Origin: an uncultured Alphaproteobacteria bacterium
Lineage (GTDB): Bacteria; Pseudomonadota; Alphaproteobacteria; JAPOUT01; G958296285
Length of the DNA: 64,000 nucleotides
Direction of reading: 5' to 3'
Assembly (NCBI GenBank): GCA_958296285.1
Contig: OY282459.1
Location: forward strand, 1,208,336-1,272,335
The position numbers and the translations under genes were made by a program. Under the pieces are notes generated by a model that saw nothing but the letters and a program-made list of their open reading frames with translations, was not told the origin of the DNA and made no database searches. Below are positions 14,313 through 60,138 of the stretch, in pieces; position 1 is the stretch's first letter; the number at the start of each line of letters is the position of its first letter.

Positions 14313-14729
14313 ATGAGACGATTCTTGATTGCCGCGGCGATGCTCGCGGGGCTTGCCGCTTGCGGCGAGATTTTTGACATTGCTCTGGATGAGGCGAAAA
14401 AGGGAGACGTGGAATCGCAGGCTGCTGTCGCCGGCATGTATTTCCATGGCTGGGGGGTGGAGAAAAACGAGACGCAAGCCTTCTTCTGGTATAAGAAAGC
14501 CGCGGATCAGGGTCATGTGGAGAGTTTGCATCTTGTCGGGCTTCTTTCGGCGAGGGGCGTCGGGACAAAGAAAGACGCAATTCGCGCCTATATCTATCTG
14601 ACTCTCGCCGAGGAGCGGGGCTATCAAGACGACAGCCGCGTCTTGGAGGCGCTGATAGCCGAGATGTCGCCGCAGGACATCGCGGAAGCGAAAACCGCGC
14701 TCGCGCGCCTCAAGGCGAGCGCCCTATGA
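14313..14729 (+). CDS. Sel1-repeat lipoprotein (short)
   Basis: Lipobox LAAC and two to three Sel1 units. Its stop overlaps the cysD start (ATGA). Confidence 0.75.
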   Translation: MRRFLIAAAMLAGLAACGEIFDIALDEAKKGDVESQAAVAGMYFHGWGVEKNETQAFFWYKKAADQGHVESLHLVGLLSARGVGTKKDAIRAYIYLTLAEERGYQDDSRVLEALIAEMSPQDIAEAKTALARLKASAL

Positions 14730-15520
14730 CGCCGATGGACGCTCTGGAAAGCCAGAGCATCTATATTTTCCGCGAGGCTTTCGCGAAAGTGAAGAATCTG
14801 GCGATGCTCTGGTCGCTGGGCAAGGATTCCAACGTCATGATCCATTTGGCGCGGAAGGCGTTTTTCGGGACAGTGCCTTTTCCGGCGCTGCATGTGGATA
14901 CAGGCAGGAAATTCCAAGAGATGTATGATTTTCGCGATCAATACGCCAAAGAGTGGCGGTTGAACTTCTTGCGCGAGACTTGTCCGCCTCTGGAAGAGAT
15001 GGACGAAACTCTGCCGCCGGCGGCCAGATCGGCGGCGCGGAAAACGGCGGGGCTGCGTCTCGCCATTCAGAAGCACGGCTTTGAAGCGCTCTTCGCGGGC
15101 ATCCGCCGCGATGAGGAAGCGACTCGCGCCAAAGAGCGCGTTTTTAGTCCGCGCGGTCTCGCCGGGCGCTGGGACTTTCGCGATCAGCCGCCGGAATTCT
15201 GGGATCAGTATAAGACCGAATTCCCGAAAGGGACGCATCTCCGAATTCATCCGATCCTGCATTGGACCGAGACCGACATATGGGAATATACGCTGCGCGA
15301 ATCTATTCCGGTGATCCCGCTCTATTTCGCGCGAGACGGCAAAAGATATCGCTCGCTCGGCGATCACGACATCACATTCCCGATGGAAAGCGAAGCCGCC
15401 ACAGTGGAAGAGATCATCGCCGAACTCCGAGACACCAAAACCGCCGAGCGCGCCGGACGCGCCATGGATCATGAAGAAGAAGGCGGTTTTGAACGGCTTC
15501 GCGCGGATGGCTATCTGTAA
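14726..15520 (+). CDS. cysD: Sulfate adenylyltransferase subunit 2
   Basis: PAPS-reductase-fold motif WSLGKDS, CysD-like throughout, followed by cysN. Confidence 0.9.
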   Translation: MTPMDALESQSIYIFREAFAKVKNLAMLWSLGKDSNVMIHLARKAFFGTVPFPALHVDTGRKFQEMYDFRDQYAKEWRLNFLRETCPPLEEMDETLPPAARSAARKTAGLRLAIQKHGFEALFAGIRRDEEATRAKERVFSPRGLAGRWDFRDQPPEFWDQYKTEFPKGTHLRIHPILHWTETDIWEYTLRESIPVIPLYFARDGKRYRSLGDHDITFPMESEAATVEEIIAELRDTKTAERAGRAMDHEEEGGFERLRADGYL

Positions 15521-15526
15521 GCGCCC

Positions 15527-17431
15527 ATGACAAAACGCCCGCCGAGCGCGCCGCGCCCTCCGCTCCCGATCGTCATTGTCGGACATGTGGATCACGGAAA
15601 ATCCACCGTCATCGGAAGACTCCTCTTTGAGACGAACAGTCTTCCGGAAGGCAAGGCGGAATCTGTCCGCGCCACCTCTGAAAAGCGCGGAATGCCCTTT
15701 GAGTGGGCTTTCGTCCTAGACGCTCTCCAAGCCGAGCGCGATCAGGGAATCACGATTGACACGACCCAAATCCGCTTCCAAACGAAAGCCAGACGCTACA
15801 TTCTGATAGACGCGCCGGGCCATGTGGAATTCTTGAAAAATATGATCACCGGCGCGGCGCAGGCCAAGGCGGCGCTTCTCGTCATGGACGCCGAAGAGGG
15901 CGCGCGCGACCAAACCCGACAGCACGCCTTCCTTCTCCATCTGATGGGATTGGAGACGATCGCCGTCATCATCAATAAGATGGATCGGGTCGGCTATCAG
16001 GAGCGGCGCTTTCAAGAACTGCGAGACAGCATCGGGCGGACGCTCCATGAGATGAATCTCAAAGTTTCGGGGGTCATTCCGGTCTCGGCGCGGGAGGGCG
16101 AGAATATCGCCGCGCCATCGGCTCATATGGCGTGGCATCGGGGCGAGACGCTGACGGCGCTGTTGGATTCTTTGCCTGACGCTCCATCGCAGAGCGAGAA
16201 GCCTCTGCGCTTTCCGATTCAGGACATCTACAAATTTGACGAGCGCCGCATCATCGCCGGGCGCATAGAGAGCGGGAGGCTGAAGGAGGGGGATCGTCTG
16301 CTGTTCTCGCCGTCCAATAAGAGCGCTGTCGTTTCCAGTTTGGAGAGCTGGCCGCCTCGTGAAGGGCGCGGATTCTCGGCGGAGGCGGGCGAGGCGGTTG
16401 GCGTCATGTTGGACAGGCAGCTTTTCTTGGAGCGCGGCGAGCTGGCGAGTCATCAGAGCGATCCGCCTTTTTTGAGCGATATCTTTCGCGCGCGGATTTT
16501 TTGGCTTGGCAGGCATCCGCTGACGCCTTCCGTTTCTTTGGTGATGAAGCGGGCGACTTCGGAGTTTTCTGTCGTTTTGCAGAGCGTGGAGCGCGTCATA
16601 GACGCGGCGTCGTTGGAGGAGGTTTCTGGCGAGAGGGTTTCGCGCAATCAGGTCGCGGACATTATTTTGCGCGCGCCGTCTTTGCAGGCGCTGGATTCTT
16701 TCGGCGAGAATGGTTTGATGGGGCGGTTTGTTTTGCTTGATGGTCGTGATATTGCCGGCGGCGGGGTTGTGTCGTTGGATGGTTATGCGGATCAGCGTCC
16801 TATTTTGGAGGCGCGGATGCGTGATGTCTCGCGCGTTTCGCACAAGGTTTCGCCGCGCGAGCGCGAGCTTCGCGCGCGTCATCGGGGCGGCGTTTTGTGG
16901 CTGACGGGCTTGTCGGGATCGGGGAAATCCACGCTTGCTTTCGCGTTGGAGAAGACGTTGTTTGATTTGGGTTATGGGGTTTATGTTTTGGACGGCGACA
17001 ATATTCGTCATGGGTTGAGCGAGGATTTGGGATTTTCGGTTGAGGATCGTTCTGAGAACATTCGGCGCGTGGCTGAGGCGGCGTCTCTTTTCGCGGATGC
17101 GGGGTTTGTGGCGCTTGTGTCGTTCATTTCGCCGATGCGGTCGGACAGGGCTCGGGCGCGGGGGATCATTCCGAATTTTCATGAGGTTCATGTCAGCGCG
17201 GATTTAGAGACGTGCGAGGCTCGTGATCCGAAGGGGTTATATAAGCGGGCGCGTGGGGGTGAGATTGAGGATTTTACGGGGGTATCGGCGGATTATGAGG
17301 TTCCTGAGGGGGCGGAGTTGGTTTTGGATACGGGGGTTGAGGGGGTTGAGGATTCTTTGCGGCGGTTGGTGGAGTATGTTGAGGGGCGGTTTCGGTTGGT
17401 TCCGGAGGGCGTTTCGGATTACGAGATTTGA
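15527..17431 (+). CDS. cysN: Bifunctional sulfate adenylyltransferase subunit 1 / adenylylsulfate kinase
   Basis: GTPase motifs [14 protein letters not shown] and NKMD. The C-terminal APS kinase has [18 protein letters not shown] and FISP. Confidence 0.9.
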
Positions 17432-17432
17432 T

Positions 17433-17633
17433 GGCTTGCTCCCGTTTTAGTGGCTTGCTCCCGTTGAGGGGGGTTTGGGGGGCTAGCCCCCCAAAAAAAG
17501 AGGGGGATCGGGGGGGAATCCCCCCCGAAAAGCGCGTGGGTGGGGTGGGGAAAAAGCATTTGCGAAGCGAGTGAAACGAGCAAGCAAATGCGACCCCACC
17601 CACGCGCCCCCTGCTAGAAGAGCTCTTGCGAGA
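17433..17633. repeat. Palindromic repeat family, locus R1 (left arm)
   Basis: GGCTTGCTCCCGTT (x2), then GGGGGGTTTGGGGGGCTAGCCCCCCAA, then GGGGGGGAATCCCCCCC. A nested hairpin follows: GCGTGGGTGGGGT...GCATTTGC...GCAAATGC...ACCCCACCCACGC. It ends with the centre CTGCTAGAAGAGCTCTTGCGAG. Confidence 0.9.
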
Positions 17634-17697
17634 AGACCTTCTTGCTTCGCGGCTTCGTCCGTGTCAGAATCAAATCACCTTCACAGGAGACCAAAAG

Positions 17698-17967
17698 ATG
17701 TGGGCGACCATCACGCAGGCGATAGGATCGGGGGGAACGGCTCTCGCTTTGATAGCCATCGGCATTGTTTTGGCTAAAGTCTTTCAGCACGACAGAGACA
17801 TTCACGCTCTGCAAGAGCAGGTGGCGACTCTCATCGCGCAGGTTCAGAAACTTGAGGTTTCCATTGCCAAACTGCAAGTTTCCATCGCCAATTTGAACGA
17901 TCTCGTCAGACAGACTTTGCAATCGCCGCAGAGTTCGGGGACAGAAAAACCGCCTCTTGACAGATAA
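17698..17967 (+). CDS. Small membrane-anchored coiled-coil protein (hypothetical)
   Basis: ATG at 17698 preceded by CAGGAGA. It has an N-terminal TM helix (GGTALALIAIGIVLAKVF) followed by heptad-like LQEQVATLIAQVQKLEVSIAKLQVSIANL. It sits between inverted arms R1 and R2. Confidence 0.5.
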   Translation: MWATITQAIGSGGTALALIAIGIVLAKVFQHDRDIHALQEQVATLIAQVQKLEVSIAKLQVSIANLNDLVRQTLQSPQSSGTEKPPLDR

Positions 17968-17970
17968 GAG

Positions 17971-18137
17971 CCTCTTGAAGAGCTCTTGCGAGCAGGGGGC
18001 GCGTGGGTGGGTCGCATTTGCTCGCTCGCTACTCTCGCTTCGCAAATGCTCTTTTCCCACCCACCCACGCGTTTTCGGGGGGATTCCCCCCGACCCCCCC
18101 TTTTCTCAAGGGGGGCAAGCCCCCCTTGACCCCCCTT
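17971..18137. repeat. Palindromic repeat family, locus R2 (right arm, inverted relative to R1)
   Basis: Reads as the reverse complement of the R1 modules: GAAGAGCTCTTGCGAGCAGGGGG, GCGTGGGTGGGTCGCATTTGC...GCAAATGC, GGGGGGATTCCCCCC, GGGGGGCAAGCCCCCC, CACGGGAG. Confidence 0.9.
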
Positions 18138-18224
18138 CACGGGAGCCCCCAATTGCAACATAGAGATAAAAAAATTGACCCCCACCCCTTTGCCCTATCC
18201 TAATCCCTCGCCTAATCTCAAATC

Positions 18225-19574
18225 ATGACACACATCACCATCATCATCCTCGCCGCAGGACAAGGCAAACGCATGGGAACCCAAACCCCCAAAGTCCTCA
18301 ACCCCATCGCAGGACAATCCATGCTCGCCCACACCCTCAACGCCGCCAAACACACCCCCAACGCCAAATATATCCTCGTCTCCCCACCCAACCAAAAAAC
18401 CATCACAGCCGAAGCCAAACGCGTCATCCCCCATATCGCCATCGCAACCCAAACAAACCCAAAAGGAACAGCCCACGCCGTCCAAATCGCGCTCCAATCA
18501 ACCCCAACCCCCCAAAACAAAGGACATATCCTCATCCTCTATGGCGACACCCCCCTGATCCAACAATCCACAATCGCCAAAATGCTACAAACCCTCAACG
18601 AAAACGCCGACTGCGCCATCTGCGCCTTCCACGAACCCCACGCCCCAGGCTACGGAAAACTCCTAGAAAACGCGAAGGGCGAAACCATCGCCATCGCCGA
18701 AGATGACGGCAGCCCCATCCCATCGCATCTCCGCGACACAGGATGGAAAAACGCAGGCTTCCTCGCTATCCACGCCGAAAAATTAACCCCGCTCCTCCCT
18801 AAAATCACCAGCGACAACCCCCAAAAAGAACGATACCTCACCGATCTTGTCGCCCTCGCCGCCGCGCGAGGCTTCTCATGCCGCCGCGTGGAATGCGAAA
18901 AATCCGAATCTCTCGGCGCGAACAACCTCGCCGAACTCGCCCAGCTGGAAGCCGTCTATCAAAACCGCCTCCGCCAAAAAATGATGCGAAACGGCGTCCG
19001 CCTCACAGCCCCCGACACCGTCCATTTCTCCTTTGACACCCGCCTGGAAAAAGGCGTCTCGGTCGCGCCCTATGTCGTCTTCGGGCGAGGAGTCCGGGCA
19101 GGGCAGGGCGCGACCATCCACGCCTTCTCCCATATTGAAGGCGCGGAAATCGCCGAAGGCGCGGAAATCGGCCCCTTCGCGCGGATTCGTCCGGGCGCGT
19201 CCATCGGCAAAGAGGCGCGCATCGGCAATTTCGTGGAAGTCAAAAACAGCGCGCTCGCCAAAGGCGTCAAAGCGAGCCACCTCGCCTATATCGGAGACGC
19301 CGAAATCGGCGCGGAAGCGAATATCGGCGCAGGCGTCATCACATGCAACTATGACGGCGCGGAGAAACATAAGACCAAAATCGGCGACAGCGCCTTTGTC
19401 GGCTCCAACAGCGCTCTGATCGCGCCTGTCCGCATAGGGGCGGGCGCTTATGTCGGCTCCGGCAGCGTCATAGAAGAGGATGTCGCCCCCGATTCTCTCG
19501 CCCTCGCCCGCGCCAAACAGATCGTCAAAACAGGCTGGGCGGCGAAATGGCGCAAGCGCCGCGGCTCGGCTTAA
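18225..19574 (+). CDS. glmU: Bifunctional GlcNAc-1-P uridyltransferase / GlcN-1-P acetyltransferase
   Basis: LAAGQGKRM N-terminal motif, C-terminal left-handed beta-helix hexapeptide repeats, followed by glmS. Confidence 0.9.
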   Translation: MTHITIIILAAGQGKRMGTQTPKVLNPIAGQSMLAHTLNAAKHTPNAKYILVSPPNQKTITAEAKRVIPHIAIATQTNPKGTAHAVQIALQSTPTPQNKGHILILYGDTPLIQQSTIAKMLQTLNENADCAICAFHEPHAPGYGKLLENAKGETIAIAEDDGSPIPSHLRDTGWKNAGFLAIHAEKLTPLLPKITSDNPQKERYLTDLVALAAARGFSCRRVECEKSESLGANNLAELAQLEAVYQNRLRQKMMRNGVRLTAPDTVHFSFDTRLEKGVSVAPYVVFGRGVRAGQGATIHAFSHIEGAEIAEGAEIGPFARIRPGASIGKEARIGNFVEVKNSALAKGVKASHLAYIGDAEIGAEANIGAGVITCNYDGAEKHKTKIGDSAFVGSNSALIAPVRIGAGAYVGSGSVIEEDVAPDSLALARAKQIVKTGWAAKWRKRRGSA

Positions 19575-28522: not shown

Positions 28523-28561
28523 GGTTCTCCCCCTGATGTTCCGCCTGTTTTTGATTTCCGG

Positions 28562-28634
28562 TGCCGGCGGAGGGATTTGAACCCCCGACCCCCTGATTAC
28601 AAATCAGATGCTCTACCGACTGAGCTACACCGGC
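28562..28634 (-). tRNA. tRNA-Thr (anticodon UGU)
   Basis: The reverse complement folds by hand. Acceptor GCCGGTG/CGCCGGC (one G-U), D stem GCTC/GAGC, anticodon arm TCTGA-TTTGTAA-TCAGG, T arm GGGGG-TTCAAAT-CCCTC, discriminator A. Confidence 0.85.
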
Positions 28635-30600: not shown

Positions 30601-30669
30601 CTCTGCCGACCGTAGAGATTTTTAAAACTTTCGCAAGAAGAAACCGCATAGTTTGCTGTCGGGGATTGT

Positions 30670-30744
30670 GGGATTTGAACCCCCGACCCCCTGATTACAA
30701 ATCAGATGCTCTACCGACTGAGCTACACCGGCGCGAGAGCGGTT
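30670..30744 (-). pseudogene. Truncated duplicate of tRNA-Thr (positions 1-63 plus 12-nt leader), the right copy of the 75-bp direct repeat
   Basis: Identical to 28572..28646. The sequence that would form the 3' acceptor strand (AATCCCC) cannot pair with GCCGGTG, and the T stem has a mismatch. Confidence 0.8.
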
Positions 30745-34907: not shown

Positions 34908-34929
34908 TTAGGCTCGGCGTTTTGACGCG

Positions 34930-35090
34930 CTCCCGTTAAGGGGGGTTTGGGGGGCTAGCCCCCCAAAAAAAACCAAGCGGGCGAAGCCCGCTATAGTCGG
35001 CGGGCGTGGCGAAACGAAGCGGGCGCAGCGCGTAGCGCAAGCCCGCGAGAAAGCCCGCCGACCCCCCTGAACGCCAAGAGCTCTTGCGAG
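34930..35090. repeat. Palindromic repeat family, locus R6 (left arm)
   Basis: CTCCCGTTAAGGGGGGTTTGGGGGGCTAGCCCCCC, AGCGGGCGAAGCCCGCT, the GTCGGCGGGC...GCCCGCCGAC hairpin, and the centre CAAGAGCTCTTGCGAG. Confidence 0.9.
34965..34992 (-). terminator. Intrinsic-terminator-like hairpin inside R6 (minus-strand sense)
   Basis: On the minus strand it reads AGCGGGC-TTC-GCCCGCT followed by TGGTTTTTTTT. It lies downstream of the minus-strand small ORF 35112..35435. Confidence 0.5.
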
Positions 35091-35111
35091 CGGGGAAATC
35101 TTGTTGAGGCT

Positions 35112-35435
35112 TCACCCGAACATGATTCGGATGAAAGCCATCGCCATAAGACCCAATATCCCTCCGCACATCCATTTTAGCAGGGTGATGTCGGCTCGGA
35201 CTTCTCCGAGGCCTTTTTGCATCTCGGCTCGGAGTTCTCCGGAGTTTTTTTCCATTTCGGCTCGGATTTCTCCGAAGCCTTTTTCCATGTCGGCTCGGAG
35301 TTCTCCGATTTGCACTTCCATACGCCGCAACCGCGCTTCTTCGCGGACGTTTTCTATGGCTTCTACGGCGGCGGTGGCTTTGGCGTCATCCACATTCGCG
35401 GCTTTGAGCGCGTCATAGACTGCGACAAGGCTCAT
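35112..35435 (-). CDS. Small tail-anchored coiled-coil protein (DUF1640-like, from memory)
   Basis: Repetitive LRADMEKGFGEIRAEMEKNSGELRAEMQKGLGEVRADI followed by the C-terminal TM WMCGGILGLMAMAFIRIMF. It sits between inverted arms R6 and R7. Confidence 0.55.
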   Translation of the reverse strand: MSLVAVYDALKAANVDDAKATAAVEAIENVREEARLRRMEVQIGELRADMEKGFGEIRAEMEKNSGELRAEMQKGLGEVRADITLLKWMCGGILGLMAMAFIRIMFG

Positions 35436-35535
35436 GGTTTTCTCCTTCGAATGGTATCTGTGTAGCAGTTTTCTGTCTCACCCGCAATTTCCTAACGAGA
35501 GAAAGAGAAAAAAGCGCCCCACGCGCCCCATGCCG

Positions 35536-35705
35536 CAAGAGCTCTTTTAGCAGGGGGGTCGGCGGGCTTTCTCGCGGGCTTGCGCTGTCGCGCTTCGCCC
35601 GCTTCGTTGCGCCACGCCCGCCGACTTTTCGGGGGGGATTCCCCCCCGATCCCCCTCTTTTTTTGGGGGGCTAGCCCCCCAAACCCCCCTCCACGGGAGC
35701 AAGCC
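35536..35705. repeat. Palindromic repeat family, locus R7 (right arm)
   Basis: CAAGAGCTCTTTTAGCAGGGGGG, the long hairpin, GGGGGGGATTCCCCCCC, GGGGGGCTAGCCCCCC, CACGGGAGCAAGCC. Confidence 0.9.
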
Positions 35706-35728
35706 AAAACTCCTATAATCATAAAACT

Positions 35729-50959: not shown

Positions 50960-52111
50960 ATGGGACAGGGACCTCTCTCAGGCATAAAAATGCTGGAATT
51001 CGCCGGGATCGGCCCCGGCCCTTTCTGCGCGATGCTGCTCGCCGATATGGGCGCGGAGATCATTCGGATTGACAGAAAAACGGGCGAGCTCGGCGGATCG
51101 GCGGCGCGCGGACAGCATGACATCATGCGGCGCGGACGGCGATCTCTGGCGATCAATCTGAAAAAACCGGAGAGCGTGGAGACTTGTCTGCGTCTGATGG
51201 AAAAAGCGGACGCGATTATGGAAGGCTTTCGCCCCGGCGTCATGGAAAGACTCGGATTGGGGCCGGAGGTCGCCCTCAAGCGGAATCCATCGCTCGTCTA
51301 TGGGCGCATGACGGGATGGGGGCAGACAGGCCCGCTCGCCCTCGCCGCCGGCCATGACATCAATTATATCGCGCTCACCGGCGTCCTCCACGCGATGGGC
51401 AGGGAAGGGGAGAAGCCCTATCCGCCGCTCAATCTGACAGGCGATTTCGGAGGCGGCGCGCTCTATTTGGCGATGGGCATTTGCGCCGCGCTGTTGGAGG
51501 CGAAGCGGTCGGGGAAGGGGCAGGTCGTGGATTGCGCCATGACGGACGGCTCGGCATCCCTAATGGCGATGTTCTTCGGCATGAAAGCGGCGGGCATCTG
51601 GGACGCCGAGACGCGCGGCGTCAATGTCTTGGACGGCGGCGCGCATTTTTACGACTCTTACGAAACCGCAGACGGCAAATGGATTTCCATCGGCTCTATA
51701 GAGCCGCAATTCTACGCGATCCTCCGCGAAAAGACCGGTCTCGCCGAAGATAAAAATTTTGATGCGCAAATGTCCCGCGAGGATTGGCGCGACATGCGCG
51801 GCAAACTGACCGCAATCTTCAAAACAAAAACGCGCGAGGAATGGAACGAAATCTTGGAGGGCAGCGACGCCTGTTTCGCCCCCGTTCTTTCCATGGAAGA
51901 GGCGGCGAATCATCCGCATAATAAGGCGCGCGAAACCTTCGTGGAGCTGGACGGCGTCATGCAGCCGAATGTCGCGCCGCGCTTCAGTCGGACGCCGAGC
52001 GCGATTCAGCATCCGCCTCCCTCGCAGGGCGCGGACGGCAGGACGATCCTCAAAGATTGGGGCTTCTCCAAGGACGAAATCACCGCGCTGGAGAAAACCG
52101 AATCCATCTAA
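50960..52111 (+). CDS. Family III CoA-transferase (CaiB/BaiF / alpha-methylacyl-CoA racemase-like)
   Basis: N-terminus [32 protein letters not shown] with RBS GGAGAA upstream. The track ORF start at 50684 is too early. Confidence 0.85.
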
Positions 52112-52869
52112 TCCTGTCGGCGCTTTTCGGTCTGACGGCGCTTGTCTATGCGAGCGTGGGCTTTGGCGGCGGATCCACCTATATCGCGCTTCTGGCGATC
52201 AGCGGCGCGGATTATCGGATGATTCCGATTGTCGCGCTCTCCTGCAACCTTTGCGTTGTCGCCGGAGGCGTCATGCGCTTCGCCGCCGCAGGGCATTTGG
52301 ATATTTTGAAGATTCTGCCGCTTGTGATCGTCTCGGCGCCGATGGCGTGGGCCGGCGGCTCTCTCATTGTCTCGGAGGCGCTTTTTCTCGGTCTCTTGGG
52401 GTGGACGCTTCTCGCCGCGTCTCTTTTAACATGGCGGGGCGGGGCGCTTGATAGATCGCCGATTGTTAAAGGCGGCAAGACGGCTCTTCTTCTTGCGAGC
52501 GGCGGGGTTGGGTTTTTGTCGGGACTTGTCGGGATTGGCGGCGGGATTTTCCTCAGCCCTCTCCTTCATATCGCGCGGTGGGCGAAGCCGAAGGAGATTG
52601 CCGGAACGGCGGCGCTCTTTATTTTTGTCAATTCGGCGGCGGGGTTGATCGGACAGATCGGGAAAGGGTCTGGCGCGATTTATGGCGAGGCTCTGGGTTT
52701 CGCGCCTTTGCTGATCGCGGTGATTGTCGGCGGACAGATCGGCGCATTGTGGGGGGCGCGCCGCGCCGCGCAGGCGCGTCTCCGCAAGATCACGGCGGCG
52801 CTTGTTTTTCTCGTCTCTTTGCGCTTATTGTGGCGGTGGGGCGGACTCATCGGAATCTCGGCGTTATGA
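52057..52869 (+). CDS. TauE/SafE-family anion exporter-like membrane protein
   Basis: Polytopic, with two GxGGG-type motifs (VGFGGGS, VGIGGGI). The start is uncertain; TTG at 52057 overlaps the upstream gene. Confidence 0.65.
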
Positions 52870-53849
52870 AGAGGCTGACAGACAATTTCGGTCGCCGCAT
52901 TGATTATTTGCGTCTTTCGGTCACGGATCGCTGCAATTTGCGATGCGTGTATTGCATGCCGAAGAGGATGCGATTTCTTCCGAAGAGGGATGTTCTATCC
53001 ATTGAGGAGTTGGAGGCGCTGGCTTCGGCTTTCATTCGGCGGGGCGTCAGGGCTGTGCGGATCACCGGCGGCGAGCCTTTGATGCGCGGCGGCGTGATGC
53101 GATTGTTTCGCGCTTTGTCCCGTCATTTGCGCCGAGGGGATTTGGACGAGATCGCTTTAACGACGAATGGGTCGCGTCTTGCGTCTTTTGCCGGCGCTTT
53201 GAGGGATTGCGGCGTGGAGCGCGTCAATGTTTCTTTGGACACGTTGAAGCCTGATATTTTTTCGGCGCTGACGCGGGGCGGGTTGCTTTCGGAGGTTTTA
53301 TCGGGGCTTGAGGCTGCTGACAAAGCGGGGTTGAGGGTTAAGATTAATCTTGTTGTTCTTGGCGATGCGAATCTTGATGAGGTTCCGGAGGTTATTATGT
53401 GGGCGCATGGTCGGGGTTATGCGGTTTCGTTGATTGAGGTTATGCCGTTGGGGGATGTGGGCGAGGATCGTTTGGCGCAATATGTTCCGTTGGATTTTGT
53501 TCGGCGGCGTTTGTCTGAGCGATGGGTTTTGGAGGCGGAGGGTTATCGGAGTTTGGGGCCGTCGCGTTATGTTCGGGTGAGGGAGACGGGGGGGTTATTG
53601 GGTTTTATCACGCCGTTGACGGAGAATTTTTGCGCTTCGTGCAATCGGGTTCGGGTGAGTTGTGTTGGGGAGTTTTTTGGGTGTTTGGGTCGCGGGGTTT
53701 CTGTGGATTTGCGCGGGGCGTTGCGCGGGGGATTTTTGGATGAGGCGATAGACAGGGCGTTATTGGGGAAGATGTGGGGTCATGATTTTCGGATTGGTGG
53801 GGGAGTTGGGGTGCCTGTGGCGCGGCATATGTCGGTGACGGGGGGCTAG
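52866..53849 (+). CDS. moaA: GTP 3',8-cyclase (molybdenum cofactor biosynthesis)
   Basis: Radical-SAM CNLRCVYC motif and a C-terminal CASCNR cluster motif. ATGA overlap with the upstream gene. Confidence 0.9.
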   Translation: MKRLTDNFGRRIDYLRLSVTDRCNLRCVYCMPKRMRFLPKRDVLSIEELEALASAFIRRGVRAVRITGGEPLMRGGVMRLFRALSRHLRRGDLDEIALTTNGSRLASFAGALRDCGVERVNVSLDTLKPDIFSALTRGGLLSEVLSGLEAADKAGLRVKINLVVLGDANLDEVPEVIMWAHGRGYAVSLIEVMPLGDVGEDRLAQYVPLDFVRRRLSERWVLEAEGYRSLGPSRYVRVRETGGLLGFITPLTENFCASCNRVRVSCVGEFFGCLGRGVSVDLRGALRGGFLDEAIDRALLGKMWGHDFRIGGGVGVPVARHMSVTGG

Positions 53850-53890
53850 GCGGCTCCCGTTGAGGGGGGTTTGGGGGGCTAGCCCCCCAA

Positions 53891-53916
53891 GAAAAACCAA
53901 GCGGGCGAAGCCCGCT
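53891..53916 (-). terminator. Intrinsic-terminator-like hairpin in the R11 left arm (minus-strand sense)
   Basis: On the minus strand it reads AGCGGGC-TTC-GCCCGCT followed by TGGTTTTTC. It would end transcripts of the SBP gene after they cross the element. Confidence 0.45.
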
Positions 53917-54088
53917 ATAGTCGGCGGGCGTGGCGAAACGAAGCGAGCGTTAGCGAGCGAGAAAGCCCGCCGACCCCCCTGCTAGAAGAGCTCTTGTAAG
54001 CAGGGGCGGTTGGGGGGTGGGTCGCTTTTCCTCGTTTCGCTACGCTTCACTCGGAAAAGCTTTTTTCCCACCCCACCCCCCAACCTAT

Positions 54089-54118
54089 AGGCTGCCTTAC
54101 GGCAGCCTTGGTTTTTTT
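54089..54118 (+). terminator. Intrinsic-terminator-like hairpin in the R11 right arm
   Basis: AGGCTGCC-TTAC-GGCAGCCT followed by TGGTTTTTTT, downstream of moaA on the same strand. Confidence 0.5.
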
Positions 54119-54143
54119 GGGGGGCAAGCCCCCCAAACCCCCC

Positions 54144-55916
54144 TCAACGGGAGCCCCCCTCAAGCCACCACAAATCCGCCGCCGTCCCATATAACGAACC
54201 CCTCTCAGGAAACCCAACCCAATCCCATGCCGCTAACCACTGATCCCCCGAATAAAACAACGGAATCACATAAAACCCCGACAACAAAACCCGATCCAAC
54301 GCCCTCACCGCATCCCGAAAACCCCCACGATCCTCAGCCCCAACCAACGCCCCTATCAAAAAATCCACAGCCCCAGACCGAACCCCCGCATAATTCCTGC
54401 TCCCCTCAAACCCCGCCGCCTCACTCCCCCAATAAAAAGCCTGCTCATTCCCAGGCGACAACGATACCCCCCAACGATAAAAAATCATGTCAAAATCAAA
54501 ATCCCTCATCCGACGCTCCCCCTGCGCCGAATCCACAAAACGAACCCGAGCCTCCACCCCCGCCAACCGCAACTGCCGCGCGAAAACTAAAGCCAACCGC
54601 TCCTCATGACGCCGAACACACAAAATCTCAAAACGAAAAACCTCGCCCCCAACATCCCGAAGAACGCCGCCCTCTAAAAACCACCCCGCCTCCCCAAAAA
54701 GCGCGAGCGCCGCCCTCCGACCCGCCCGATTGTGCCGACCCTCCGAAACAGGCGGACGATAACCGCCCTCCAAAATCTCCGGCGCAACCTCATCAGCAAA
54801 AGACGCAAGCAAAGCGCGCTCGCCAGCGCTCGCCCCCAACCCATGAGACGATAAATCCGAATTGGCGAAAAAACTCCCAATCCGCCGATACTTCCCATGA
54901 AAAAGATGCGCATTAATCCACTCAGCATCCAACAAAAGCGAAAGAGCCTCGCGGACGCGCCTGTCCGAAAAAATCCCCCGCCGCGTGTTGAAAACAAGAC
55001 CCCACATGCCAGACGGCGACCCCGTCGGAATCTCCTTCAACAGAATGCGTCCGCGATCCCTCGCCGGCGCGTCATATTGAACAGCCCAGCGCGAAACATC
55101 TCGCTCCGCGCGCGCGTCAATCTCGCCCGCCTTAAAAGCCTCAAAAGCCGAACCCTCATCACGAAAATAACGATACAAAACCCGATCCGCATTAAATCGC
55201 CCGCGATTGACAGGCAAATCCTTCCCCCAATAATCCAAATCGCGCTGATAAAGAATCTTCTCGCCCGGCGCGATCTCGGCAACCCGATACGCCCCGCTCC
55301 CTAAAGGCGTTTTAAGAGAGGTCTCGTCAAACCTATGCTTCGTGAAATAAGCCCGCGACAAGATCGGCATCAAACCCATAATGAGCGGCATCTCCCTGTC
55401 GCTCCCCGCCTTGAAAACAAAACGGACGCCCCGCGCGCCAACCTTCTCCATCCGAGCGATCTTGCCATAATAAAAACGATGATTCGGACGACCCTTCTCC
55501 CGAAGCGTCCGCGCCGAAAACAAAACATCCTCCGCGCGGACAGGAGAGCCGTCAGAAAAACGCGCCTTCGGATGAAGCGTGAAAAGAACGGAGCTTCTGT
55601 CCGGCGGCGTCTCAATCGTCTCGGCAAGAAGACCATAAAGCGTGAAAGGCTCGTCCCATCCGCGCGCCATCAGACTCTCATAGACAAATTCGCGCAAGCC
55701 GGCGGCAGGCTTCCCCCGAATGATGAAAGGATTGACGCTGTCAAACGTCCCGCTGCGCGAAAGATGAAGCGTCCCGCCTTTCGGCGCGTCAGGACGAACA
55801 TAGGGAAAATGAGAGAAGCCTCTCTGATAAAGCGGCGCGCCATGCATGGCGATCGCGTGAGAATCGGCGAGAGCGCCCCCGGCGTCCGCCGTCAGAAAAG
55901 CGCAGGCGAGCGCCAA
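54144..55916 (-). CDS. Family-5 extracellular solute-binding protein (orphan ABC SBP, YejA-like)
   Basis: 590 aa, SBP_bac_5-like throughout. No permease or ATPase gene is adjacent. The last codons and the stop lie inside the R11 terminal repeat. Confidence 0.8.
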   Translation of the reverse strand: MALACAFLTADAGGALADSHAIAMHGAPLYQRGFSHFPYVRPDAPKGGTLHLSRSGTFDSVNPFIIRGKPAAGLREFVYESLMARGWDEPFTLYGLLAETIETPPDRSSVLFTLHPKARFSDGSPVRAEDVLFSARTLREKGRPNHRFYYGKIARMEKVGARGVRFVFKAGSDREMPLIMGLMPILSRAYFTKHRFDETSLKTPLGSGAYRVAEIAPGEKILYQRDLDYWGKDLPVNRGRFNADRVLYRYFRDEGSAFEAFKAGEIDARAERDVSRWAVQYDAPARDRGRILLKEIPTGSPSGMWGLVFNTRRGIFSDRRVREALSLLLDAEWINAHLFHGKYRRIGSFFANSDLSSHGLGASAGERALLASFADEVAPEILEGGYRPPVSEGRHNRAGRRAALALFGEAGWFLEGGVLRDVGGEVFRFEILCVRRHEERLALVFARQLRLAGVEARVRFVDSAQGERRMRDFDFDMIFYRWGVSLSPGNEQAFYWGSEAAGFEGSRNYAGVRSGAVDFLIGALVGAEDRGGFRDAVRALDRVLLSGFYVIPLFYSGDQWLAAWDWVGFPERGSLYGTAADLWWLEGGSR

Positions 55917-55947
55917 AACAACGCCGCAAGGCGAAGGCGCGAGAGAA

Positions 55948-56280
55948 TTAGTGCAAATAATTCTGCCTTATCCGATAAGCGCCCTTCTCCAACGCGCCGA
56001 AAAGCTCGCCCACCTTCGGATGACGGATAGGCTCGCCGCTCTCGTCCGGCAGAAGATTCTGCTCGGAAACATAGGCGATGTAATCGCTCTCGGCATTCTC
56101 GGCAAGAAGGTGGTAAAAGGGCTGATCCTTGTGAGGCCTAATCTCGGCAGGAATGGACTGCCACCACTCCTCCGTATTGTTGAAAACGGGATCTACGTCA
56201 AAAATCACGCCCCGAAACGGATAAATGCGGTGGCGGACGACCTGTCCGATTTTGAATTTCGCGCTGCGCGTCTCAGACAT
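55948..56280 (-). CDS. hspQ: Heat-shock protein HspQ (YccV-like hemimethylated-DNA-binding domain)
   Basis: KFKIGQVVRHRIYPFRGVIFDVDP...PFYHLL pattern, 110 aa. Confidence 0.8.
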   Translation of the reverse strand: MSETRSAKFKIGQVVRHRIYPFRGVIFDVDPVFNNTEEWWQSIPAEIRPHKDQPFYHLLAENAESDYIAYVSEQNLLPDESGEPIRHPKVGELFGALEKGAYRIRQNYLH

Positions 56281-56467: not shown

Positions 56468-58486
56468 ATGATGAGCGCAAATGCAGTCCATACATCGCGC
56501 CCGCTTTCCCGATGGATGAAGCTGATCTACGGCTCAGGCGCTATGGCGTTTGGCGTCAAGGATGCCGCTTTGGCTTATCTGCTGCTCCTCTATTACAACC
56601 AAGTCCTCGGGCTGGACGCGAAATTGGTCGGAATCGCGCTGCTGCTCTCTTTCCTGCTGGACGGCATCTCCGATCCCATAGTCGGCTATATTTCCGACAA
56701 TATCCAAACCCGATGGGGCAGACGGCATCCCTTTATGTATGTCTCGGCGATTCCCGCCTTCATCTGCTTCTACTATCTGTGGAATCCGCCGGCGGGACTC
56801 TCGCAGACGGATCTCTTCGTCTATCTGCTGACCTTCACAATCCTGACGCGTCTCGTGATCACCTTCTACGAAACGCCGAGCTCGGCTCTGATCGCCGAAA
56901 TCACCGATTCCTACCATCAGCGCACAAACCTTCTCACCTATCGCCTTGTCTTCGCATGGGTCGGCGGATTGCTGCTCTCGCTTCTCGCCTATGGCGCGCT
57001 GCTTGTCCCAACGCCCGAATATCCGGTCGGACAGCTCAATCCGGAAGGCTATCAAACGATGGGGCTCATCGGCAGCGCGGCAATTCTTTTCACGATCCTG
57101 ATCTCCTCTCTCGGAACCCATCACTACATCCCCCGCCTCAAAACCCCCACCTCCATCACAAAAATCGGAAGCGGACGCGCCTTCCGCGAAGCCTTTGAGA
57201 GTTTGTCCAATCCGTCCTTCGTCTATCTTTTCGCTTACGCCATGTTTTCCGCCGTGGGTTTCGGAATCGTCACCGGGCTCAATATCTATATCAACACCTA
57301 TTTTTGGGAACTCAGCGCGAAGCAGATCTTCCTGGCGAATCTCGCGCTTTTGCTCTCCGCCGCGATCGCCGCGATCATCACGACTCCCATGTCGCGCGTC
57401 ATCGGCAAGAAAACAGCCGCGATAGGAACCTCTTTCCTATCCTTCCTGCTCATTCCGCTTCCGATCATTCTGCGGCTGTTGGACGTGCTGCCGCCCAATG
57501 GCGGCGAGCCGGTCTATGAAATTCTCGGCATCGGCGTCACGTCTATCATGATCTACGTCATGGGCTTCCAGATTGTGGATGTCGTCATGATCATCGCGTC
57601 CAACATTCTGCTCGCCTCCATGATCGCCGATATTGTGGAAGATAATCTCGTGCAGACCGGAAGACGCTCGGAGGGTTTGTTTTTCGCGTCCCGCACCTTC
57701 ATTCTGAAATGCGTCACGGGTTTGGGCGGTTTGCTCTCGGCTTTCGTGATCGCGGCGGCAGGGTTTCCTGAAAACGCCAAGCCGGGGGAGGTGGAGCCGG
57801 AAGTCGTGCGGAATCTCGGAATTCTCTACGCGCCTCTCTTAGTCGGCCTCTTCGCGATCGCCATGTTTTTCCTCAGAGGATATGGGATTGACAAGGTCAA
57901 GCATGAAATGAATCTCAAAATCATAGGCGGAATGACGAACCGTCATAAGGGCGGCGTCATTTGGCTGACAGGCTTGTCCGGAGCCGGAAAATCCACTCTG
58001 GCGGCGGAGCTGGAAAGAAACCTCGCCGATTCGGGATATTCCGCCTATGTCGTGGATGGCGACAAAATCCCGATTGCCCAGAACCCCAAATCTGAATATT
58101 CCAGCGAAGATTACGCGCGCGAAGCCAAGCGCGTCCGTGAAATCGCCGCGCTCTTCGCCGAGTCCGGACTCGTCACGATCGCCGCTTCCATCTCGCCCGA
58201 TCGCTTTGACAGAGTCCTCGCCAGAGACATATGCCCCAACTTCCACGAAGTCTATGTCAAGGCGAATATCACGGTGTGCGTGGCGCGCGACCCCAACAAT
58301 TTGTATAAAAAGGCTCGCGCCGGAGAAATCCAAGACTGTCCAGGAATCTCCGCGACCTATGAGGAGCCGAAAGAAGCCGATCTTGTCGTGGACACCAATA
58401 CGGATGACGTTGAGACATGCGCCGCGAAACTCGTCCAATATGTCAAATCGCATTTCCCTCTTATCCCTCAAGCCGCGCCGGCGTGA
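56468..58486 (+). CDS. GPH/MFS_2-type transporter fused to a divergent adenylylsulfate-kinase-like P-loop domain
   Basis: The first roughly 480 aa are 12-TM MelB-like (DGISDPIVGYISD...RWGRRHPF). The C-terminal roughly 185 aa have GLSGAGKST, DGDK, SISP and ARDPNNLYKKARAGE, paralogous to the CysNC C-terminus. Confidence 0.8.
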   Translation: MMSANAVHTSRPLSRWMKLIYGSGAMAFGVKDAALAYLLLLYYNQVLGLDAKLVGIALLLSFLLDGISDPIVGYISDNIQTRWGRRHPFMYVSAIPAFICFYYLWNPPAGLSQTDLFVYLLTFTILTRLVITFYETPSSALIAEITDSYHQRTNLLTYRLVFAWVGGLLLSLLAYGALLVPTPEYPVGQLNPEGYQTMGLIGSAAILFTILISSLGTHHYIPRLKTPTSITKIGSGRAFREAFESLSNPSFVYLFAYAMFSAVGFGIVTGLNIYINTYFWELSAKQIFLANLALLLSAAIAAIITTPMSRVIGKKTAAIGTSFLSFLLIPLPIILRLLDVLPPNGGEPVYEILGIGVTSIMIYVMGFQIVDVVMIIASNILLASMIADIVEDNLVQTGRRSEGLFFASRTFILKCVTGLGGLLSAFVIAAAGFPENAKPGEVEPEVVRNLGILYAPLLVGLFAIAMFFLRGYGIDKVKHEMNLKIIGGMTNRHKGGVIWLTGLSGAGKSTLAAELERNLADSGYSAYVVDGDKIPIAQNPKSEYSSEDYAREAKRVREIAALFAESGLVTIAASISPDRFDRVLARDICPNFHEVYVKANITVCVARDPNNLYKKARAGEIQDCPGISATYEEPKEADLVVDTNTDDVETCAAKLVQYVKSHFPLIPQAAPA

Positions 58487-58549
58487 TGGAGCGAATCGCC
58501 ATGGCAAGATGGAAAAGATAGCCTCCTGAAAAGGGGAGCAGGGGATACA

Positions 58550-60028
58550 ATGACAAGCGAGGAAGTCCAAACCACGCGTCCCGTCCCGCGATGGCTGAAG
58601 TTCTGCTATGGATTAGGATCCGTCGCCTATGGCGTGAAGGATAATGGTCTCTCTTTCTTTCTGCTGATTTATTACAACCAGATTCTCGGACTGCATGCGA
58701 CTTTGGTCGGTTTGGCGCTGCTGATCTCGCTGCTGATAGACGGCGTGTCCGATCCGATCGTCGGCTATGTCTCTGACAGAATCAAGACGCGCTGGGGCAG
58801 ACGACATCCTTTCATGTATTGCTCGGCTGTTCCGGCGCTGCTCTGCTATTTTTATCTTTGGAATCCGCCTTTGGGGCTTTCGCAGGCGGCGCTTTTCGCC
58901 TATCTGATCACGCTGACGGTGACAGTGCGCCTCGCCCTGACCTTCTACGAGACGCCAAGCACGGCTCTGGTCGCCGAAATCACCGATTCCTACCATCAGC
59001 GCACCAATCTGCTGAGTTTCCGCTTTTTCTTCGGTTGGTGGGGCGGATTGACGATGGCGCTGCTCTCTTACGGCGTTCTCTTGGCGCCGACCGAAGCCTA
59101 TCCGGACGGACAGCTCAATCCGGAAGGCTATCAGGCGATGGGTCTTATTGGGGGCGGCATCATTGTCTCGGCGATTCTGATTTCGGCGCTCGGGACGCAT
59201 CCCTATATCAAGCATCTGAAGAAGCCGCCGCCGCCTGTCGGAGGATTCGCCATCACGCGAATGTGGCGCGAGGTCAAGGAGAGTCTGTCCAACCCGTCCT
59301 TTCTCTATCTTTTCATCGCGGCGATCTTTTCGGCGATGGCGGCGGGAATCGTGACCGGCTTAAACATTTACATCAACACCTATTTTTGGGAGTTCTCGTC
59401 TCAGCAGATTTTTCTGACGGTCACCACCAATTTTCTCTCCGCCGCGATCGCGGTGTCCATCGCCACGCCTTTGTCGCGTCTTTTGGGGAAGAAACTGGCG
59501 GCGATTCTCTCTTCCCTTGTCGCCTTCACGCTTCTGCCTCTGCCCGTTCTGCTGCGCCTGATGGACGTCCTTCCCGCCAATGGGGGCGAGCCTCTTTACA
59601 TGCTGCTCGGCATTCCTGTCACGCCGATCCTGAACGTCATTCTCATCACGAACATGATAGACGTCATTCTGATTATCGCCTCCAGCATTCTCTTGACGTC
59701 CATGATCGCGGATCTGGTGGAGGACAGCCAAATTGAAACGGGGCGGCGATCGGAGGGTTTGTTTTTCGCGGCGCGCACATTCATTCTGAAGGCGATGTCG
59801 GGCTTGGGGGGCATGATCTCCACGATCATCCTCGTCCTGTCCGGCTTTCCGAGAGACGCCAAGCCCGGCGAGGTCGCGCCCGAAATTTTATGGAATTTGG
59901 GGATTCTCTACGCGCCGCTGCTCCTCTGTCTCTACGCGATCGCCATCTTCTTCCTGACAGGCTACAGAATCAATCAGCAGAAGCACGAGAGCAATCTGCG
60001 AATTCTCTCGGCGAGAGCCAAAGCCTAG
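58550..60028 (+). CDS. GPH/MFS_2-type transporter (unfused paralog)
   Basis: Collinear with the transporter part of 56468..58486 (DGVSDPIVGYVSD...RWGRRHPF), 492 aa. Confidence 0.85.
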   Translation: MTSEEVQTTRPVPRWLKFCYGLGSVAYGVKDNGLSFFLLIYYNQILGLHATLVGLALLISLLIDGVSDPIVGYVSDRIKTRWGRRHPFMYCSAVPALLCYFYLWNPPLGLSQAALFAYLITLTVTVRLALTFYETPSTALVAEITDSYHQRTNLLSFRFFFGWWGGLTMALLSYGVLLAPTEAYPDGQLNPEGYQAMGLIGGGIIVSAILISALGTHPYIKHLKKPPPPVGGFAITRMWREVKESLSNPSFLYLFIAAIFSAMAAGIVTGLNIYINTYFWEFSSQQIFLTVTTNFLSAAIAVSIATPLSRLLGKKLAAILSSLVAFTLLPLPVLLRLMDVLPANGGEPLYMLLGIPVTPILNVILITNMIDVILIIASSILLTSMIADLVEDSQIETGRRSEGLFFAARTFILKAMSGLGGMISTIILVLSGFPRDAKPGEVAPEILWNLGILYAPLLLCLYAIAIFFLTGYRINQQKHESNLRILSARAKA

Positions 60029-60047: not shown

Positions 60048-60138
60048 TGGCGGATGGGGTGGGATTCGAACCCACGAGACGCGATAAACGTCTGCTGGTT
60101 TTCAAGACCAGTGCCTTCAACCGCTCGGCCACCCATCC
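60048..60138 (-). tRNA. tRNA-Ser (anticodon UGA)
   Basis: Reverse complement GGATGGGTGGCCGAGCGGTTGAAGGCACTGGTCTTGAAAACCAG... with a long variable arm, T arm GTGGG-TTCGAAT-CCCAC and an encoded CCA. Confidence 0.9.

Follow-up and report, generated by a model that had tools for sequence, protein, structure and literature searches.

Soluble domains at the C-terminus of major facilitator superfamily (MFS) carriers are a known theme, such fusions being extensive and varied (reviewed in PMC10710835). Here, we describe what is a new variation on it, an APS_kinase-family domain (APS stands for adenosine 5'-phosphosulfate) joined to an MFS_2 transporter, which is encoded by one gene in a 64,000-nucleotide stretch of DNA (the window, i.e. 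positions 1,208,336 to 1,272,335 of contig OY282459.1, assembly GCA_958296285.1) from an uncultured alphaproteobacterium. Among described systems, LacS of Streptococcus thermophilus belongs to the same glycoside–pentoside–hexuronide (GPH) or MFS_2 branch and has the layout predicted here, a carrier with 12 transmembrane (TM) helices followed by a cytoplasmic C-terminal hydrophilic domain of ~160–190 residues (PMC10710835; PMC8154325). However, the two appended domains are unrelated: LacS carries a IIA domain of the phosphotransferase system (PTS), whereas the fused protein, in which a Pfam scan found no PTS family, has neither a phosphorylatable IIA histidine nor a link to HPr, and regulation, which has been demonstrated for LacS, is one candidate role of the appended domain here. 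MelB (a melibiose:Na+ symporter) and MFSD2A (a Na+:lysophosphatidylcholine symporter) are distantly similar to the carrier, which has counterparts of the MelB cation-site residues and, in a distant alignment, of four of its five sugar ligands, but neither has a fused enzyme-like domain.

APS kinases (EC 2.7.1.25), which include CysC and the kinase domains of CysNC and PAPSS, either stand alone or follow CysN or ATP sulfurylase, whereas the domain described here sits on a membrane transporter. In DxD P-loop kinases, such as shikimate, gluconate, chloramphenicol and APS kinases, it is the segment after the DxD motif that carries acceptor specificity. One departure from catalysis is known in fungal ATP sulfurylase, whose allosteric domain has lost its ATP P-loop function and still binds 3'-phosphoadenosine 5'-phosphosulfate (PAPS) as an effector. 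How a canonical enzyme holds its substrates is defined by crystal structures of Mycobacterium tuberculosis (Mtb) CysC, where (i) the adenine of APS is stacked between F492 and F576, (ii) its phosphosulfate is bound by R483 and R497, plus the main chain of I523/S524, (iii) D480 is the proposed base, D478 is a ligand of Mg-bound water and R559 of the lid stacks on the adenine of ATP, and (iv) the lid lysine K562 is proposed to be catalytic by stabilising the transition state (PMC4373884).

Against this background, the fused gene tells a story that we regard as very probable. In one isolated alphaproteobacterial lineage, an MFS_2/GPH symporter underwent tandem duplication, after which one copy gained a CysC-type domain, fused in frame to its cytoplasmic C-terminus; the phosphoryl-donor half of that domain (K508/S509, D530, D532, R607 and the fold) was kept while its acceptor half was rewritten, and it is no longer a canonical APS kinase. 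The relevant features of the window, all on the forward strand, are as follows.

56468–58486 (+): fused gene, MFS_2 transporter plus C-terminal APS_kinase-family domain, 672 residues (open reading frame, Pfam, NCBIfam)
56525–57895 (+): MFS_2/GPH transporter domain, residues 20–476 (Pfam PF13347, HMMER alignment to MelB 4M64)
57896–57949 (+): cytoplasmic tail and junction, residues 477–494, ending in GIDKVKHEMNLKII followed by GGMTNRHKGG (tail alignment with the paralog and relatives, reading of the DNA)
57950–58486 (+): APS_kinase-family domain, Pfam residues 495–642, the domain extending to the stop codon (PF01583, TIGR00455, AlphaFold2, Foldseek)
57971–57997 (+): P-loop GLSGAGKST, residues 502–510, intact (alignment)
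58055–58063 (+): D530-G531-D532, intact, with the equivalents of Mtb D478 and D480 (alignment)
58064–58138 (+): rewritten acceptor-binding loop, residues 533–557, including R to P535, F to Y544, R to Y549 and N to E552 (alignment)
58277–58351 (+): lid and adenine-pocket strand, residues 604–628, with R607 kept, PKG changed to PNN and DFTGI to DCPGI (F to C624) (alignment)
58550–60028 (+): unfused tandem paralog, 492 residues, MFS_2 only (open reading frame, Pfam, alignment)
15527–17431 (+): resident canonical CysNC, the in-genome comparator, its kinase domain at ~16820–17431 with every APS ligand intact (alignment)
14726–15520 (+): CysD, the small subunit of sulfate adenylyltransferase, encoded ahead of CysNC (annotation)

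An APS_kinase-family domain with its APS-ligand side chains replaced

Profile scores and sequence identity place the C-terminal domain, in terms of descent, in the APS_kinase homologous family. It scores 153 bits with PF01583 over residues 495–642 (cutoff 21; canonical homologs reach 190–225 bits), 171.7 bits with TIGR00455 (apsK, cutoff 138.7) and 167.4 with NF003013 (cutoff 163), and it is 47–56% identical to alphaproteobacterial CysC and CysNC kinase domains. An earlier reading of this DNA made from the sequence alone, without database searches (hereafter the sequence-only reading), had taken the domain for a paralog of the CysNC kinase domain; by descent it is indeed a CysC paralog, the identity to the resident CysNC kinase domain being 52%. 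This does not make the resident cysNC, which sits with cysD 40 kb upstream of the fusion, the favoured source, since other alphaproteobacterial kinases reach up to 56%, and the two domains share just four rare residues (I588, P590, N591 and P667), which is no more than with several unrelated sequences. The fold is predicted with confidence (AlphaFold2 model with a pLDDT of 89.6 and a pTM of 0.86), and Foldseek superposes the model on APS kinases (PAPSS1, Arabidopsis APSK and Mtb CysC) with TM scores of 0.82–0.86, 1M8P being also among the fold matches.

The likeness to APS kinases extends to the ATP site. Present are the P-loop G502–T510 (with K508 and S509), D530, the lid R607 (equivalent to Mtb R559) and D532 of the DGD motif (equivalent to D480, the proposed catalytic base), and more generally the P-loop, (L/V)DGD, ISP, lid Arg and LYxxARxGEI motifs. 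We aligned the fused domain with its 120 best homologs, the CysNC domain of the window and human PAPSS1. Of the 86 columns with at least 90% conservation, it keeps 61 and has lost 25. These losses cluster, with 13 of 16 such columns lost in residues 533–557 versus 12 of 70 elsewhere (58 kept). The boundary is sharp, for D530-G531-D532 are all kept and change begins at the very next residues.

The rewritten segment, DGDKIPIAQNPKSEYSSEDYAREAKRV, aligns without a gap to the canonical DGDN[ILV]RxGLxxxLGFSxEDRxENIRRV, which bears out the claim that the APS-contacting segment had been replaced with loss of Arg, Asn and Phe residues. Loop 533–557 keeps its exact length without any indel, and has gained polar and aromatic residues. 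We also considered that it might be the product of compensating frameshifts, an idea that was rejected because translation in either of the other frames yields unrelated sequence, and because I534, S545, E547, D548, R555 and V556 persist as in-frame anchors. All five side-chain APS ligands of Mtb CysC are replaced (R483 by P535, F492 by Y544, R497 by Y549, K562 by N610 and F576 by C624), the change to Y544 being conservative, and further changes are N552E and F574S. By contrast, the equivalents of the I523/S524 main-chain contacts, I575/S576, are kept.

The significance of these replacements is clear from 149 diverse 50%-cluster representatives, on which the ligand check was repeated. The phosphosulfate Arg is conserved in 147/149 (position 535) and 149/149 (position 549), as is the Arg at 554 (149/149), the lid Lys (position 610 here) is found in 145/149, and a Phe occupies each stacking position in 143/149. 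At the five ligand positions, 133 representatives show no deviation, 14 show one, two show two and none shows more, while the fused domain deviates at all five. The sequence-only reading was therefore only partly right in calling the P-loop, DGD, SISP and lid all conserved. The P-loop and DGD are, but SISP corresponds to canonical (A/S)FISP with F to S at 574 (a position that varies in the wider family, 38/149 representatives having L, A or C there and the Mtb enzyme Ala) and, since the lid lysine is replaced by N610, the claim fails for the lid where it matters for catalysis.

With its APS-ligand side chains lost, the domain is not a canonical APS kinase. It also lacks the N-terminal segment of these enzymes, and shows a pattern inverse to that of the C-terminal domain of fungal ATP sulfurylase (Penicillium chrysogenum, PDB 1I2D/1M8P), in which it is the ATP site that is lost; here the ATP site is kept and the APS/PAPS site is gone. 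Both would be APS_kinase-fold domains that sit in a larger polypeptide without being APS kinases, and 1M8P is among the sequence matches as well as the fold matches. As read from the alignment, the fused domain fails four defining functional features, and should not be annotated as an adenylyl-sulfate kinase. The suspicion that its phosphoryl acceptor may not be APS is thus strengthened, APS being very unlikely once all five side-chain ligands are replaced.

The idea of a local PAPS supply fares badly. It needs APS binding, yet both phosphosulfate Arg, one stacking Phe and the lid lysine are gone. That the protein is nonetheless an APS kinase with an unusual mode of APS binding, which supplies PAPS beside the transporter (for a sulfated product, for example), strikes us as highly improbable. 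Scores above both curated NCBIfam cutoffs and the retained ISP main-chain contacts speak for it, but P, Y, N and C now stand in place of R483, R497, K562 and F576, whose roles rest on crystal structures (PMC4373884), and the 149 representatives never deviate at more than two of the five positions. Moreover, no sulfotransferase is found among the genes that were annotated, namely the neighbours of the fusion locus plus some of the window's other genes (the remainder was not scanned).

The carrier, the junction and the rarity of the fusion

Both open reading frames, the 672-residue transporter–kinase fusion and the unfused paralog beside it, are where the sequence-only reading had placed them, and their Pfam domains agree with it (gene callers prefer the second ATG of the fused gene, at 56471, which gives 671 residues). 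PF13347 matches residues 20–476 with 311 bits over its entire length (profile positions 1–427 of 427). The N-terminal half of the transporter has MFSD2A as its best match (E=7e-17), and MelB aligns over the full length (E=2.5e-11). In MelB, the cation ligands are D55 and D59 (the helix II Asp pair) and T121 (helix IV), and the sugar ligands are K18, D19, D124, R149 and W128 (PMC8329300). In the HMMER alignment to 4M64, the counterparts of D55, D59 and T121 are D65, D69 and T132, and those of K18, D19, D124 and R149 are K31, D32, E135 and R159, while W128 is replaced by S139 (the alignment being a distant one, E=2.5e-11). The paralog has the same transporter motifs. On sequence grounds the transporter half looks functional, and these features fit an ion-coupled symporter for a hydroxylated solute. 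TIGR00792 (gph) gives 147 bits for the fused transporter and 151 for the paralog, below the curated cutoff of 231; the transporter represents a divergent MFS_2 branch that is widespread in metagenomes at 45–50% identity. The neighbourhoods of transporter homologs gave no substrate clue, the contexts being housekeeping or inconsistent.

A crude hydropathy scan gave overlapping segments compatible with 11–12 helices, and the topology is taken from MelB. GPH carriers have cytoplasmic C-termini, which would give the fused domain access to ATP. The hydrophilic domain spans residues 487–672, ~24 residues linking the transporter to the kinase-family domain. The conserved H-E-x-N-L motif of the transporter tail is followed within ~5 residues by the kinase N-terminal motif (R)NxHKGG, so the kinase domain would be held near the cytoplasmic end of TM12. 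The 63-nt spacer between the fused gene and its paralog lacks any terminator-like site, and a run of purine-rich sequence precedes the ATG; the two genes are therefore probably co-transcribed. Regarding expression, no clearly labelled RNA run was found to hold the fusion locus.

Could the fusion be an artefact of assembly or sequencing, with two separate genes merged by a frameshift or a stop-codon error? This was a worry of the sequence-only reading, and there are two grounds for suspicion, a Met codon (M489) that lies right at the junction and an architecture that is seen nowhere else. However, stand-alone and CysN-linked kinases have an extra N-terminal segment that is missing here (its 98%-conserved Arg corresponds to Gly487), and M489 is thus not an ancestral start. 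The protein cluster of the fused gene holds three distinct, 99%-identical sequences, one from each of three assemblies (that of the window, P0001 and P0242), all in the same frame. P0001 sits on a 1.72-Mb contig whose name reads as hifiasm-style, and P0242 on a 28-kb contig. Pairs of these alleles differ by 4 to 12 amino-acid substitutions, and indels, stops and frameshifts are absent from all three. Furthermore, no indel interrupts the junction in Logan contigs of four public runs (X1 over 56896–59000, X2 and X3 over 57565–58299, X4 over 57565–58275), the sole indel across the whole 3.9 kb being a 6-nt polymorphism at 60025. An artefact can thus be set aside with near certainty.

The sequence-only reading knew of no characterised example of this architecture, which is neither common nor annotated. 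An exhaustive HMMER search of 1.84 billion cluster representatives, with residues 381–672 as the query in order that true fusions outrank single-domain matches, found that P0001 alone matches both the transporter and the kinase parts (636 bits), the next match (194 bits) being kinase-only, and no transporter was detected by Pfam in any of the ten odd-length matches that were checked. With the full-length protein as query, the matches were the self cluster, the paralog (62%) and a single syntenic relative (57%), followed by hundreds of unfused MFS_2 proteins that reach 50% identity or less. Scanning one genome per species of GTDB gave no MFS_2 plus APS_kinase fusion, two apparently longer matches in that scan (L020 and L006) being rejected as spurious tblastn over-extensions. 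No mention of this combination was found in the literature searched. The fusion of a transporter with an APS_kinase-family domain is therefore essentially unique so far.

Sparse sampling accounts for part of this singleton status. GyrA (gyrA, 7578–10268) shares no more than 62% identity with any other protein in a collection of 5.8 billion, and its named best matches come from Hyphomicrobiales-type genera (Tepidamorphus, Microvirga, Chelatococcus and Amorphus). The window's strain and a sister strain (L001) are each represented by a single contig of 1.72–1.73 Mb. The host is a phylogenetically isolated alphaproteobacterium with a genome of ~1.7 Mb. The syntenic relative (L032, an ERZ22155170 contig) has one unfused transporter in the same neighbourhood (CoA-transferase, SBP_bac_5 and hspQ, then rlpA, dacC, tmk, holB, metG and tatD).

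What the appended domain may do

Polymorphism among the three alleles offers a view of how the locus evolves. In the kinase part, eight polymorphic codons are synonymous only and three change an amino acid, and the pairwise ratio of non-synonymous to synonymous substitution rates (dN/dS) is 0.06–0.19, which suggests, within the bounds of small numbers, purifying selection on the kinase domain and argues against free decay. For the unfused paralog, dN/dS is 0.11–0.13. In the transporter half of the fused gene, on the other hand, 4 synonymous-only codons face 10 changing ones, mostly in residues 303–366 (window 57374–57564), and the one ortholog in the syntenic relative shares 68% identity with the paralog but 56% with the fused transporter half (paralog and fused half are 63% identical to each other), which suggests that the membrane part is the faster-evolving half of the fused copy. 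Divergence of both halves fits joint neofunctionalisation. Two of the three amino-acid polymorphisms of the kinase part, N611K and T630P, co-segregate as haplotypes within the sampled population (58300 T>A and 58355 A>C, at ~40–50% depth in X2–X4), the window allele departing from the family consensus by two derived substitutions, K611N and P630T.

How might such a protein work? Very probably, an MFS_2/GPH cation symporter in a housekeeping context was duplicated in tandem, and a CysC-type P-loop kinase domain joined in frame to the cytoplasmic C-terminus of one copy. This domain may use ATP to phosphorylate a compound other than APS, probably uncharged and hydroxylated, of which the most economical candidate would be the solute imported by the tethered transporter. 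Import would thereby be tied physically to the initial step of metabolism, or to trapping, while the unfused paralog would retain the ancestral transport job. The logic, if this is right, would be that of PTS group translocation, of PnuC/NadR-type transport plus kinase trapping and of LplT-Aas fusions, to which there is no homology; here a predicted P-loop small-molecule kinase is fused directly to a predicted ion-coupled MFS_2 symporter. Several features speak for this scheme: a DGD motif that is kept although rewriting starts directly after it, a loop that preserves its length, gains polar and aromatic residues and corresponds to the specificity-bearing segment of related kinases, signs of purifying selection, and the divergence of both halves. 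An acceptor-switched small-molecule kinase that acts on the imported solute is the function that we favour, but only tentatively, at rather less than even odds. A more specific version is a shade more doubtful still, namely that an acceptor pocket re-engineered from APS to the transported solute allows PTS-independent, uptake-coupled phosphorylation, possibly with a relocated catalytic lysine (through the N to K533 change next to the catalytic Asp, or through K611 of the sister strains).

A number of observations weigh against uptake-coupled phosphorylation. No acceptor can be named, and trapping is not required, as an ion-coupled symporter already accumulates its solute. The canonical lid RDPKGLYK reads RDPNNLYK here, the lid lysine having become N610, and the next residue is N611 in the window strain and K611 in the sister strains L001 and L040, which is odd for an essential catalytic position; with the presumed catalytic lysine absent and residue 611 polymorphic, transport-coupled phosphorylation is weakened. 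The only low-confidence stretch of the AlphaFold2 model (residues 537–542) falls within the rewritten loop, the genomic context (hspQ, rlpA, dacC and tmk) is housekeeping and uninformative, the fusion is confined to one species-level lineage and thus has no comparative support, and the dN/dS estimate for the kinase part is based on just 11 polymorphic codons.

A non-catalytic, ATP-binding regulatory role is about as likely as transport-coupled phosphorylation. The domain would then be a pseudokinase that binds ATP or ADP without phosphotransfer, probably dimerises as APS kinases do, and gates or tunes the symporter in line with the energy state of the cell, or dimerises it, a possibility that we rate as real but well short of even. 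Loss of the catalytic lid lysine and of all the APS ligands, with the P-loop and lid Arg kept under purifying selection, is what it would predict, and the sulfate-activation family has already yielded non-catalytic domains, fungal ATP sulfurylase with its allosteric, APS-kinase-like domain being an example (1M8P is a fold match). In addition, C-terminal regulatory domains are known on MFS/GPH carriers, including the IIA domain of LacS, CBS, cNMP-binding and UspA domains, the last of which bind ATP (PMC10710835; PMC8154325). It sits less well with the survival of D532, superfluous for mere nucleotide binding, right beside a stretch in which 13 of 16 conserved columns have changed, or with a loop of unchanged length that gained polar and aromatic residues instead of degenerating, and the literature searched gave no precedent for an APS_kinase-family domain as a sensor.

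A less flattering view, which we consider unlikely, takes the domain for an evolutionary relic. A transporter copy would have been joined, recently and by chance, to a redundant cysC fragment that is losing its function, has an already decayed acceptor site and is no more than tolerated. It draws on the single species-level lineage, on the APS-kinase activity already supplied by the resident CysNC, on the derived K611N and P630T of the window allele and on the excess of amino-acid polymorphism in the fused transporter half (10 changing versus 4 synonymous-only codons). Decay should, however, also have struck the P-loop, DGD and lid, yet 58 of the 70 conserved columns outside the loop are kept, the three alleles are all free of indels, stops and frameshifts, the kinase part has a dN/dS of 0.06–0.19, and its fold is confidently predicted.

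The wider window and what the fusion means

Besides the fusion, the window has other features that deserve mention. Upstream of the fused gene, at a distance of 3.6–7 kb, lie moaA, a P450 gene and a gene for a TauE/SafE-family (sulfite exporter/TSUP) membrane protein (52057–52869), for none of which could a functional link to the fused kinase domain be made. Downstream, the 6-nt deletion polymorphism at 60025 is found in runs X3 and X4 and lies at the extreme end of the paralog open reading frame, and a tRNA-Ser(TGA) gene (60048–60138, −) is located 20 nt past the paralog stop codon on the opposite strand. Two tRNA-Thr(TGT) genes (28560–28634 and 30658–30733, −), 2 kb apart, sit in the part of the window with the lowest GC content (0.50–0.53 versus ~0.58–0.61 elsewhere), and could represent a duplicated tRNA target flanking an insertion.

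Three intergenic elements (17468–18134, 34916–35713 and 53849–54158) form a family with long inverted repeats at their boundaries, in which G6/C6 runs abound. They share the terminus CCCGTTGAGGGGGGTTTGGGGGGCTAGCCCCCCAA, which is present in five copies at three mismatches or fewer versus none expected, and each has a central CTGCTAGAAGAGCTCTTG-like core. Two enclose a small open reading frame for a protein with a TM segment and a coiled coil (17698–17967, +, 89 residues by reading of the sequence, and 35112–35435, −, 107 residues) and the third has none; the first lies ~30 nt past the cysNC stop codon. The element at 54 kb (53896–54138) is hypervariable between strains, with no alignment at all in L001, and the 2 kb around it show ~41 differences per kb to L040, compared with ~10 per kb elsewhere.

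On either side of two of the elements, strand bias is extreme and mirror-imaged over ~2 kb; at the third the flip is weaker. The asymmetry is extreme at ~16000–19500 and 52000–56000, with weaker flips near 27.0, 32.9, 35.2, 39.0 and 45.5 kb. Around the elements, the keto skew, (G+T−A−C)/N, reaches up to +0.35 on the left and −0.36 to −0.42 on the right, fading over ~2 kb, and in both arms the G/T-rich strand is the one with its 3' end towards the element. On the coding strand, third-codon skews (GC3/AT3) reach −0.66/+0.51 for glmU, +0.56/−0.75 for moaA and +0.49/−0.83 for SBP_bac_5. Gene orientation alone is insufficient as an explanation, since cysNC and glmU share the + strand; one possible cause is deamination of DNA that is recurrently single-stranded. 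A 299-residue Pro/Thr/Lys-rich open reading frame (54017–54916, +) was rejected as a gene because it is an antisense shadow of SBP_bac_5 (54144–55916, −) that results from extreme G/T-rich codon usage. The skewed patches were also dismissed as a cause of the divergence of the kinase domain, as the fusion locus lies outside them (absolute keto skew of at most 0.11).

In conclusion, APS kinase is among the most uniform of small-molecule kinase families, with five side-chain ligands that are almost invariant in 149 diverse representatives, and the domain fused to this alphaproteobacterial carrier is a natural experiment on giving up acceptor specificity, or catalysis itself, within the APS-kinase fold. 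Were it a pseudokinase, an ATP sensor derived from an APS kinase would join the plug-on regulators of transporters. Were it an active kinase, it would bring both a new acceptor for the APS-kinase family and a new coupling of uptake to phosphorylation, and a genuine acceptor switch would be a natural example of one within an otherwise monofunctional family.

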